Shown here one piece after another: positions 3,644 through 4,224 of a DNA stretch of 64,000 bases (positions are counted from its first letter, which is position 1; every line of letters begins with the position of its first letter). The position numbers and the translations under genes were made by a program. The notes under the pieces are model-generated. The model was given only the letters and a program-made list of their open reading frames with translations, was not told the origin of the DNA and searched no databases. This stretch comes from Escherichia coli (GTDB taxonomy: Bacteria; Pseudomonadota; Gammaproteobacteria; Enterobacterales; Enterobacteriaceae): NCBI RefSeq assembly GCF_045037415.1, contig NZ_CP173438.1; one strand, written 5' to 3'.

Positions 3644-4224
3644 ACGCGCACCTCGCATTCGCCCCCTTGTTGTCCTTTTCGCATCGGTTAATACGGTGAA
3701 GAGGGGATCTCAATTACTGCATAAATATGATGAGCAGGCTGCTCATCCAGAAAGCTTCCAGCGGATTTCCAACTTATCGGGAAAGCTGATACAGGTCAAA
3801 TGGCAAGCTTATTGGTACAGAAATGTGCTTTAGCGCAAAATTCTTTATTAATTGTATGAAATTAAAGTGGATTTTCTATTTAAGGCTAAAAGGGGTGTCG
3901 TTAGAGAAACAGCCAATTCCTGACTGTCATAAAGGCGTGTTAACCCTTATCCTGCCTTGAATTGATGAGAAAGCCAGCATTTTATACTGCCTTAATTGGT
4001 AATAACGTTTCATGCTACTGTTTTTGCCTAAAATCCATAAGAAGATAAAAAAATCTGACACAAGATAAGCAACAGTGATTTATGTGATTGTGCATGAAAT
4101 TTCGGTAATTTTGATTGGTTATGCAGTTGATAAAAGCAGGCTGGGACGATTGATCCAGGTCATCGCCGAATTGGGCTAAAAATGGCAGGCTTTGGCCTCT
4201 TTTCAAGGCGCGGTCTATCAGATT

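Follow-up and report, generated by a model that had tools for sequence, protein, structure and literature searches.

The genes gltB (glutamate synthase) and yhcC (a radical-SAM protein) of Escherichia coli are divergently transcribed from a spacer whose length and composition raise the question of what occupies it, and whether its regulatory sites serve one gene or both. Within the 64,000-nt stretch of E. coli DNA analysed here (contig NZ_CP173438.1; the window), a first-pass annotation had described positions 3644-4224 as a long, AT-rich divergent control region of the two genes, and comparison with published K-12 data and with 77 Enterobacteriaceae species (>20 genera) supported this description in part. 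We consider it very likely (probability about 0.85) that the spacer combines two control modules, one for gltBDF and one for yhcC, which are arranged back to back at a constant distance from each other.

Extent and composition of the spacer

The interval 3644-4224 comprises 581 nt, bounded by a CAT (ATG on the minus strand) that ends at 3643 and by the yhcC ATG at 4225. A spacer is indeed present here, but its left edge corresponds to an obsolete gltB start. Measured from the conserved gltB start at 3550 it spans 674 nt; a further 93 bases belong inside it, and 217 nt are gltB 5′ leader rather than promoter.

3548-3550, minus strand: true gltB start codon (MLYDK...), from RefSeq annotation and conservation
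3559-3566: gltB SD, GGGGGAGG

The start at 3550 was kept in all 77 species, the upstream ATG (3641-3643) in only nine, and 34/77 species carried an in-frame stop seven codons upstream of 3550. Length changes in the alignment of 3551-3643 were not multiples of three, and codon periodicity was absent. Given the stops, the poor conservation of the ATG, the frame-breaking lengths and the missing periodicity, we rejected a longer GltB whose N terminus would begin at the ATG ending at 3643. Judged by these comparative data, which support 3550, the older gltB start codon is wrong.

The claim of unusual length was borne out, the spacer ranking first among the 53 annotated spacers of the window (median 99 nt, second longest 456 nt). 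Its description as highly AT-rich held relative to genes (GC 0.406 for 3644-4224 versus 0.527 for window genes) but not relative to the other window spacers (0.436 pooled, range 0.34-0.61), among which it is ordinary. Only the core (3800-4100, GC 0.34) lies at the low end of the spacer range, where the ubiU/ubiT spacer equals it. The window sequence was 100% identical to E. coli SK1144 and 97.7% identical to K-12, and the locus was found in 5416/5426 E. coli genomes. The spacer differed from K-12 by 22 substitutions in 581 nt (3.8%) and no indels. Fourteen of these clustered at 3852-3973, the region of the IHF footprint and Lrp sites 1-2, and one created a near-consensus TACAAT within the IHF footprint.

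Hidden protein genes in the spacer were rejected, as its four ORFs of 44-66 aa were intact in 0-2 of 72 other species, leaving no conserved small ORFs. An Rfam search of 3000-8500 (E <= 1) returned ArcZ alone, outside the spacer, and zero families within it. The 'gltBDF' cis-antisense candidate ECS018 is located in the gltD-gltF spacer and is therefore irrelevant here.

Published gltB regulatory sites map mostly onto conserved blocks

Multi-factor control of gltBDF, as put forward in the first-pass annotation, is documented in the literature, and the published positions map to the window, mostly onto conserved blocks. In K-12, Lrp and IHF activate gltBDF, and CRP and ArgR repress it (PMC1784095). 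The Matthews laboratory numbering was anchored with primers gltP1/gltP2, whose -325 and +8 ends fall at 4092 and 3760, and with the CRP site, -55 to -76 of which corresponds to 3821-3842. The -399.5 given by Grainger implies another gltB start near 3757, so that the sources differ by ~9-10 bp.

3766-3767, minus strand: gltBDF transcription start (Matthews laboratory numbering), from primer and CRP-site mapping
3771-3799, minus strand: gltB core promoter read from the sequence, -35 TTGACC (3794-3799), 17-bp spacer, -10 TAAGTT (3771-3776)
3821-3842: CRP site for gltBDF repression, centre -65.5, from the published K-12 footprint and mutagenesis
3842-3880: IHF footprint (-75 to -113), published K-12 position, coinciding with a cluster of A/T tracts ~10 bp apart
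3912-4020: Lrp-binding region, published K-12 centres ~-152 (3919), -215 (3982) and -246 (4013)

Across the 77 species the -35 block and the -10/+1 block of the gltB core promoter were conserved and the 17-bp spacer between them was variable; the -10 hexamer lies unusually near +1. The CRP site was identical in its letters to K-12, and across genera only its TGTGC half was conserved. Lrp site 2 (3975-3989) had one mismatch in 15 to the consensus (P = 0.02 versus shuffles) and zero to two mismatches in 58/77 species, with sites 1 and 3 unrecognisable by consensus and retaining scattered conserved bases only. The IHF footprint was poorly conserved, its best consensus match (2 mismatches) being no better than chance. 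Another FNR-like box (3786-3799), which overlaps the gltB -35, is probably fortuitous, its left half not being conserved outside Escherichia.

Motif scanning had been proposed as a check on the sites, and consensus scans for CRP, FNR, IHF, Lrp, ArgR, Nac, Fis and ArcA were compared with 300 dinucleotide shuffles. One Lrp site beat the shuffles, but CRP, IHF, ArgR, FNR and Nac were not above chance. Since only the Lrp site was significant in this AT-rich DNA, such scans are uninformative here, and the assignment of CRP, IHF, ArgR, FNR and Nac rests on K-12 experiments and conservation instead of consensus matching.

Local bends predicted in the spacer

The A/T tracts had been described as phased, with 3840-3860 and 4020-4050 as examples. 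Over the whole spacer they were not (Rayleigh statistic 0.05-0.38), and the sole local cluster with ~10-bp spacing was at 3837-3891. Curvature was predicted with our own wedge-model script, using Bolshoy parameters. With these parameters, predicted peaks near 4025, 4105 and 4182 exceeded the 99th percentile of the window (P 0.003-0.05 versus dinucleotide shuffles), but their values were like those of other promoter spacers (argG/metY and glmM/secG). Both the tract phasing and the predicted curvature are thus modest.

4019-4054: conserved T5 tract (4019-4025) and A7 tract (4047-4054), with the strongest predicted bend in the spacer (peak ~4025)

In 54% of the other species the ~4025 peak also lay above the 95th percentile of the window. 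The 4020-4050 example thus corresponds to a predicted bend, but 3840-3860 was weakly curved, though inside the published IHF footprint. A high AT content and local bending are commonly seen at sites for IHF, Lrp, ArgR and Nac.

A separate, oxygen-responsive promoter for yhcC

That the region also holds the yhcC promoter was confirmed; this promoter is separate, with its own FNR box and a start at 4198. The description of yhcC as a gene of unknown function is outdated. YhcC matched TIGR01212 (MnmL/YtqA) over its full length at 472 bits (equivalog cut-off 180), and a 2026 preprint reports that yhcC, an MnmL homologue, is required for anaerobic cmnm5s2U demodification.

4225-5154, plus strand: yhcC, MnmL/YtqA-family radical-SAM tRNA-modification gene (TIGR01212)
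4183-4198, plus strand: yhcC (mnmL) promoter with published transcription start, extended -10 TG (4183-4184), -10 CAGGCT (4186-4191), start 4198
4150-4163: FNR box TTGATccagGTCAT, centre -41.5 from the yhcC start, from ChIP and conservation

In 2013 the start of yhcC was still given as 'not known'; it was later mapped to K-12 3354077 (PMC7967276 supplement), giving a 5′ UTR of 27 nt and a T as the published start base. Combining the 2013 FNR work with these later 5′-end data places the centre of the FNR box (4156.5) at -41.5 from the start at 4198. The FNR site predicted by Grainger is the reverse complement of 4147-4170, and the FNR ChIP-seq peak of Myers maps to ~4145. In K-12, yhcC shows FNR occupancy by ChIP-chip and ChIP-seq and FNR-dependent anaerobic induction, and it has been classed as directly FNR-activated. 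The box was identical to K-12 and the same in 68/77 species, and the block containing the yhcC -10 (4178-4192) was conserved at 0.94. FNR-box-type matches numbered 37 versus 29 expected by chance; the weight of this box is carried by its position, ChIP evidence and conservation rather than by the match itself.

ArgR and probable Nac sites between the two promoters

Between the Lrp region and the FNR box lie the sites that bear most directly on the proposal that yhcC shares nitrogen-related regulation with gltB.

4065-4079: probable Nac site ATAAGCAACAGTGAT, from motif match, conservation and a nearby ChIP peak
4089-4127: ArgR operator with two ARG boxes (4089-4106 and 4110-4127) 3 bp apart, published footprint -361 to -318

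Nac represses gltBDF and has a ChIP peak in this region (PMC9853098, PMC5217608). The peak lies at -165 from yhcC and -510 from gltB, i.e. ~4060, about 12 bp from the candidate site, to which it presumably corresponds. Thirteen of the 15 positions of the candidate fit the published motif ATAagnaaaanttAT, including the ATA...AT core (K-12, 14/15), and 72/77 species had at most one mismatch; Nac-type matches in the window numbered three versus 1.26 expected. The ARG boxes had four mismatches each, fall within the published footprint and were conserved across species.

It is unlikely, on balance, that Lrp, IHF, CRP, ArgR and Nac govern both genes from a single AT-rich, curved region, with yhcC co-regulated with gltB. 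Part of this idea survives: the Nac site and the ARG boxes are centred at -126, -100.5 and -79.5 from the yhcC start, which puts them much nearer to it than to that of gltB, ArgR ChIP-exo with EMSA assigns binding to 'upstream of yhcC', and the invariant Nac-ARG-FNR spacing (77/77) makes one rigid block with the yhcC promoter. Yet under Nac induction yhcC did not respond (ratio 1.09) and gltB fell to 0.47, and the literature, with its direct FNR activation of yhcC and a function in anaerobic tRNA modification instead of nitrogen metabolism, points to control by oxygen. The sites for Lrp, IHF and CRP face the other promoter and lie 180-370 bp away from where yhcC transcription begins. Shared nitrogen regulation of yhcC was therefore unsupported.

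Fixed geometry across the Enterobacteriaceae

The spacer measured 656-688 nt in 76 species, and the distance between the gltB and yhcC transcription starts was 429-433 bp in 77/77, at a sequence identity of only 59-72% outside Escherichia. The distances from the -35 to the CRP half, from Nac to ARG1 and from ARG2 to FNR were each identical in all 77, with the sequence between sites poorly conserved. For gltB, a published 5-bp insertion lowers expression 3-7 fold but a 10-bp insertion does not, and the invariant spacing fits this face-of-helix dependence of gltB activation.

The same comparison bears on the reading that the spacer is largely non-functional AT-rich filler, such as an H-NS-bound or horizontally acquired remnant, which we regard as highly improbable. 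The core GC of 0.34 and the poor conservation between sites are what filler might look like, but length and internal spacings varied by no more than ±2 bp among 77 species of >20 genera, the region has been extensively dissected functionally in published work, and the locus is present in nearly every E. coli genome counted above.

The gltB leader and a candidate small RNA

The 217 nt at the gltB end and a transcript overlapping the yhcC promoter each suggest a further, RNA-based account.

3551-3767, minus strand: gltB 5′ leader, 217 nt, block-conserved and structured, including 3551-3643, formerly annotated as coding
3729-3747, minus strand: leader hairpin P1 (+21 to +39), GAUGAGCA-GCC-UGCUCAUC, terminator-like, from covariation
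3614-3668, minus strand: leader hairpin P3 (+100 to +154), from covariation
4134-4211, minus strand (annotated 4211 to 4106): candidate small RNA G0-10702, from its transcription start and a Term-seq 3′ end at 4134

In the leader alignment 99.1% of cells were paired and 11 pairs had changed on both sides, compared with 2.4 ± 1.0 in shuffles (0/500 reached 11) and 1-6 in slid controls. Four of the eight P1 pairs had compensatory changes, and the P1 sequence was identical to K-12. The tip of P3, where the obsolete ATG lies, is variable and has been lost from Klebsiella and Raoultella; a tip pair changed from UA to CG in 13 sequences. A published Term-seq RNA 3′ end (K-12 3354657, window 3618, +150) falls at P3. 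The invariant stretch that follows P1 (3700-3728) holds a mini-ORF, AUG CAG UAA (3714-3722), and within gltB third-codon-position identity was 0.97-1.00 in codons 1-30 versus 0.5-0.7 beyond. A literature search on premature termination in the gltB 5′ UTR found no report. RyhB-leader pairing was rejected, the best duplex (-26.6 kcal/mol at +5 to +40) being no better than shuffles (P = 0.126).

The start of G0-10702 (K-12 3354064, window 4211) has been reconfirmed by 5′-specific RNA-seq. The transcript is abundant while yhcC is barely detectable, and its abundance falls in an hfq mutant. Its start falls within the yhcC leader, 14 bp in, from where the transcript runs across the FNR box; a possible promoter lies in yhcC codons 1-8 (-35 TTGACT at 4242-4247, -10 TAATCT at 4220-4225). 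As a structured sRNA it was rejected, no conserved fold being found (alifold -5.9 kcal/mol; MFE z +0.69).

One tentative reading, to which we give appreciable weight though well short of even odds, is that spacer length reflects mainly a cis-regulatory RNA, undescribed so far, in which the leader and codons 1-30 control gltB translation or premature termination. The compensatory changes in P1 and P3, the invariant single-stranded stretches, the near-invariant synonymous sites and the internal 3′ end are consistent with it, as are published reports that RyhB induction lowers gltB ribosome occupancy at an unchanged mRNA level and that OmrA/B lower GltB and GltD protein. Yet the leader is only one third of the spacer, its MFE z-score (-0.99) is not significant alone, the long-range and SD-sequestering helices are invariant and hence lack covariation support, Rfam gave zero family matches for the leader, and the conservation seen over +1 to +64 could reflect constraint on the DNA. 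The RyhB duplex lacks significance, and the effects of RyhB and OmrA/B on gltB may be indirect. Apart from the matter of length, it is conceivable, if somewhat less likely still, that the leader and codons 1-30 (3461-3767) form such an RNA family-wide and set the output of glutamate synthase post-transcriptionally, acting by SD sequestration, by premature formation of a 3′ end near +150 or by pairing with RyhB or OmrA/B.

A second, weaker possibility is an oxygen-dependent promoter-competition switch formed by G0-10702 together with the FNR promoter of yhcC. That G0-10702 is an independent sRNA gene (~78-106 nt) whose RNA or promoter competes face-to-face with the yhcC promoter as an aerobic/anaerobic switch appears doubtful to us. 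The mapped and reconfirmed start, the high abundance, the Term-seq 3′ end, the Hfq dependence, the plausible TTGACT-16-TAATCT promoter within nearly invariant first codons of yhcC and the position of the FNR box at +48 to +61 of the transcript all favour it. Besides the missing fold, however, it lacks a terminator hairpin, its 3′ end falling in CUGCUU^UUAU; its conservation is fully explained by the overlapping FNR box and yhcC -10; no target is known; AT-rich DNA often yields spurious transcripts; and EcoCyc deleted the entry in 2019 because evidence was lacking.

A two-module model and its relation to known systems

The two-module account remains the one we prefer. In module A (~3551-4130), gltBDF would be transcribed from a weak sigma-70 promoter activated from a distance: IHF would bend the A/T-rich DNA at -75 to -113, allowing an Lrp complex on -152, -215 and -246 to reach RNA polymerase, and CRP at -65.5, Nac at ~-305 and ArgR at -318 to -361 would lower transcription. 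Ahead of the start codon at 3550, the transcript would then have the structured leader of 217 nt. Module B (4147-4224) would be a class II FNR-dependent yhcC/mnmL promoter, at which FNR at -41.5 would recruit polymerase to a poor, TG-extended -10, so that the anaerobic tRNA-modification enzyme is made without oxygen. Spacer length would then be accounted for by four stretches: the gltB leader (217 nt), the gltB upstream sites (~360 nt), the yhcC promoter (~70 nt) and the yhcC leader (27 nt). The two modules probably act independently. Set against such independence are the nearness of the ArgR and Nac sites to yhcC and the start of G0-10702 in the yhcC leader.

Divergent regions with a shared nucleoprotein complex are found at malEp-malKp and ilvY-ilvC. 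The present locus resembles these in its back-to-back promoters, several hundred base pairs of regulator sites and fixed helical phasing, but the evidence favours separate modules (Lrp/IHF/CRP versus FNR), no activator is known to serve both, and the two starts lie farther apart (431 bp). The closest known system is the K-12 gltBDF region itself (Wiese et al. 1997; Paul et al. 2001, 2007), an orthologous locus aligned with zero indels, in which the core promoter, CRP site, FNR box and P1 are identical and the ARG boxes, Lrp site 2 and Nac-like motif are present. It differs by the substitutions described above, concentrated in 3852-3973, and the sites of the present strain are assigned by sequence. 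Module B resembles class II FNR promoters such as dmsA, narG, nirB and yfiD in its FNR box (8/10 to consensus, centred at -41.5), in a weak -10 typical of activator-dependent promoters, and in the occupancy and induction by FNR in K-12, but differs in the divergent start 14 bp inside its leader and in the ArgR and Nac sites immediately upstream. With the long structured 5′ leaders of amino-acid metabolism genes, the gltB leader shares its length, covarying hairpins, an internal RNA 3′ end, possible SD sequestration and early-codon synonymous constraint; it differs in having no Rfam match and unexceptional stability, and in that a ligand, protein or sRNA partner is not established.

In K-12, others have demonstrated that the proteins bind and how they affect the regulation of gltB and yhcC; to this the present analysis adds the mapping of sites, their conservation and fixed spacing, the -41.5 geometry and the corrected gltB start. 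Almost every part of the region is covered by published sites, by the leader or by the separate oxygen-sensing yhcC promoter, and in that sense it is already known. The finding as originally posed matters little, as the region it rediscovers is among the better-dissected promoter regions of E. coli, and the suggestion on yhcC has been overtaken by FNR and tRNA work. The practical use of the re-analysis is that the old gltB start codon is corrected, the published Nac ChIP peak is tied to one strongly conserved 15-mer, and the FNR site is placed at the canonical -41.5 from a mapped start. A 430-bp architecture kept to ±2 bp while the sequence between its sites drifts is a clean natural example of geometry-constrained distant activation, and the gltB leader, with its early-codon constraint, comprises the only elements here that could yield new biology.

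Extent of the gltB–yhcC control region

The window comes from E. coli. Positions 3400–4500 matched SK1144 at 100% identity and K-12 at 97.7%, and this stretch was found in 5416/5426 complete E. coli genomes. The genes concerned are:

start 3550 (MLYDK..., RefSeq), minus strand: gltB
4225–5154, plus strand: yhcC
5250–7586, plus strand: arcB

The first-pass annotation placed the spacer at 3644–4224, which is exact for an older gltB start (ATG at 3643, MTRKPRR...) but misses the true left edge. Using YhcC as the query, the locus was retrieved from 80 Enterobacteriaceae species representatives, and 77 sequences (76 species plus the window) were analysed. 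The MLYDK ATG was present in 77/77, an ATG at the old start position was kept in only 9/77, and an in-frame stop lay seven codons upstream of the MLYDK start in 34/77. Across the 77 sequences, the N-terminal extension of GltB upstream of MLYDK was not conserved; its aligned segment ranged from 78 to 95 nt and displayed no codon periodicity. The true spacer is therefore 3551–4224 (674 nt). Stops and frame-breaking indels in other genera led us to reject 3551–3643 as gltB coding sequence, the reading of both the older annotation and the first pass.

Of the window's 53 annotated spacers, this one was the longest (median 99 nt; second longest 456 nt), in agreement with its initial description as unusually long. 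Its supposed high AT-richness held relative to genes (GC 0.406 for 3644–4224 versus 0.527) but was ordinary for E. coli intergenic DNA (0.436 in the pooled other window spacers). Likewise, A/T tracts at about 10-bp spacing occurred in a local cluster (3837–3891), but phasing over the whole spacer was absent.

Regulator sites at gltB

The gltB transcription start was fixed at 3766/3767 by the primers and CRP sequence of Paul et al. 2007 (PMC1784095); the FNR position given by Grainger, '-399.5', points to a start in another source ~9–10 bp further downstream. The published sites (PMC1784095), and the core promoter read from the sequence, mapped as follows:

3771–3776: gltB −10, TAAGTT
3794–3799: gltB −35, TTGACC
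3821–3842: CRP site, centred at −65.5
3842–3880: IHF site, −75 to −113
about 3919, 3982 and 4013: Lrp centres, −152, −215 and −246
4089–4106 and 4110–4127: tandem ARG boxes (ARG1/ARG2, 3-bp gap) of the ArgR operator, footprint −361 to −318

Together with Nac repression from later ChIP studies, these published sites bear out the multi-factor control of gltB described at first pass. Consensus scans against shuffles singled out Lrp site 2 only (one mismatch, P = 0.02), but CRP, IHF and ArgR matches in the spacer were no better than chance, and thus the motif scan proposed as a check could not decide the matter. Across the family, the full CRP site was not conserved, the TGTGC half alone being kept, nor was the IHF-site sequence.

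The only sigma-70-like match of the promoter scan, TAGAAA-16-TACAAT (3851–3878, minus strand), lies inside the IHF footprint and owes its TACAAT to substitutions relative to K-12; 14/22 differences from K-12 cluster in 3852–3973. A second FNR-like box, CTGATacagGTCAA (3786–3799), overlies the gltB −35. Its left half was not conserved outside Escherichia and, judged from sequence, the box is probably fortuitous.

gltBD was thought to be hardly Nac-responsive (PMC1784095); later ChIP studies reported that Nac represses gltB. The Nac ChIP peak at 3,352,237 (U00096.2; −165 relative to the start of yhcC and −510 relative to that of gltB) maps to about 4060, twelve bp from ATAAGCAACAGTGAT (4065–4079), which matches the published motif ATAagnaaaanttAT at 13/15 positions (14/15 in K-12). 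This 15-mer carried ≤1 mismatch in 72/77 species and was among the best-conserved spacer elements. From peak proximity, motif and conservation, we infer that it is the Nac site. Elsewhere, a two-mismatch Nac-motif match (56646–56660) was found at the edge of the ubiU/ubiT divergent spacer (56648–56855), which serves another anaerobic-pathway gene pair and has the lowest GC (0.34) of the larger spacers.

Bends near 4025, 4105 and 4182, predicted with our own wedge-model script (Bolshoy parameters), exceeded the window's 99th percentile, with only a modest excess over dinucleotide shuffles (P 0.003–0.05), and resembled those of other promoter spacers in the window. Of the tracts first remarked upon, 3840–3860 is the IHF footprint, and 4020–4050, just past the most distant Lrp centre, coincides with the strongest bend predicted. 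Roughly half the other species were also predicted to bend near 4020, and 81% near 4185.

Conserved spacing across the Enterobacteriaceae

Spacer length was 656–688 nt in 76/76 species with available flank, and identity to the window was only 59–72% outside Escherichia. Spacings among the elements were:

gltB +1 to yhcC +1: 429–433 bp (77/77)
−35 to CRP half-site: 24 bp (77/77)
Nac to ARG1: 11 bp (77/77)
ARG2 to FNR: 24 bp (77/77)

Most of the length variation resided in the gltB leader (201–231 nt), and inter-site DNA was AT-rich throughout the family (GC 0.29–0.42). The fixed spacing agrees with published evidence that Lrp activation of gltB depends on the face of the helix: inserting 5 bp lowers expression 3–7 fold, but inserting 10 bp does not.

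One comparison entry titled Chryseobacterium sp. 18061 (L070) held a typical enterobacterial yhcC–gltB locus with 90% YhcC identity, and the assembly is therefore probably mislabelled or contaminated. For another, titled E. coli strain E69 (L006), spacer identity to the window was just 86%, suggestive of a divergent Escherichia lineage.

Probable FNR-dependent promoter of yhcC

The initial view of yhcC as a gene of unknown function is outdated. Against the TIGR01212 'MnmL/YtqA' equivalog YhcC scored 472 bits, recent RefSeq records name the gene mnmL, and according to a 2026 preprint it is needed for anaerobic cmnm5s2U demodification, in place of the O2-dependent MnmC activity. Grainger's FNR ChIP-chip targets included yhcC/gltB, and the site predicted there reads as the reverse complement of 4147–4170. 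Myers et al. described yhcC as directly FNR-activated ('TSS not known'), their peak mapping to about 4145 by a coordinate conversion that was confirmed. A later 5'-end compilation puts the start of yhcC at K-12 3354077, corresponding to window 4198 (no indels versus K-12). The promoter elements are:

4150–4163: FNR box TTGATccagGTCAT, centre 4156.5, exactly −41.5 from the start at 4198, a class II position
4183–4191: weak TG-extended −10 (TGgCAGGCT), downstream of the FNR box

The FNR box was identical in 68/77 species and the −10 block was 94% conserved. FNR-consensus matches of like quality are common by chance (37 found versus 29 expected in the window), so the case rests on position, ChIP and conservation. 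Codons 1–12 of yhcC (4225–4261) were nearly invariant, synonymous sites included, and an obvious Shine-Dalgarno (SD) sequence was absent.

That yhcC also shares nitrogen control with gltB, as first proposed, is unlikely: the ARG boxes and Nac site are centred −79.5, −100.5 and −126 from its start and a published ChIP-exo and EMSA study reported a new ArgR association 'upstream of yhcC', but in the Nac data set the yhcC ratio was unchanged (1.09) while gltB was halved, leaving the proposal unsupported.

A candidate sRNA, G0-10702, is annotated from 4211 to 4106 on the minus (gltB) strand. It shares about 14 nt with the yhcC leader at its 5' end, which 5'-specific RNA-seq reconfirmed. Its level is reported to fall in an hfq mutant, and a published K-12 Term-seq 3' end maps inside it (4134, minus). 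A plausible promoter, TTGACT-16-TAATCT (4242–4247, 4220–4225), sits in the nearly invariant first yhcC codons. Sequence conservation of G0-10702 is explained by overlap with the FNR box and yhcC promoter, and no conserved structure was detected within it; we regard G0-10702 as a real, though possibly incidental, transcript. None of the spacer ORFs was conserved across the species compared. The ArcZ sRNA (Rfam RF00081, 120.8 bits; 7591–7698, minus) occupies its expected E. coli position between arcB and elbB.

The gltB 5' leader

The gltB–yhcC control region is already known. The first-pass observation is real, yet partly mis-bounded and partly ordinary, with an interpretation that was right on gltB. 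The 217-nt gltB leader displayed block-wise conservation, and RNAalifold on an alignment of 74 distinct leaders predicted 52 pairs, 11 of which changed on both sides (2.4 ± 1.0 in shuffles, 0/500; 1–6 in slid controls). This covariation was located in P1 and the tip of P3:

3729–3747 (+21 to +39): P1, predicted hairpin, 4/8 pairs compensatory
3614–3668: P3, predicted hairpin, tip covarying; the obsolete ATG falls in its variable end, a deletion in Klebsiella and Raoultella

The leader matched no family in an Rfam search and its MFE was unexceptional (z −0.99). Two further predicted pairings, one between the SD and codons 5–7 and one between the 5' end and codons 8–13, were invariant and hence lack covariation support. 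A published K-12 Term-seq 3' end maps to 3618 (minus, +150), four bases past the upper P3 stem; its 'internal' label reflects only the old start codon.

RyhB induction represses gltB translation in published ribosome profiling, and OmrA/B overproduction lowers GltB/GltD protein. The RyhB sequence is confirmed in the window's strain; its best duplex with the leader was not significant (P = 0.126).

Among 72 non-Escherichia species, the translation-initiation region (3461–3575) was almost invariant at the nucleotide level, with third-position identity of 0.97–1.00 over codons 1–30, then 0.5–0.7, and it contains a palindrome (UCCCU-UGAG-AGGGA) that could pair with the SD. An invariant single-stranded stretch, CAUAUUUAUGCAGUAAUUGAGAUUCCCUCU (3700–3728), includes a three-codon mini-ORF (AUG CAG UAA, 3714–3722) whose stop is lost in a few species. 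The gltB leader is the one part of this locus that may hold something undescribed.
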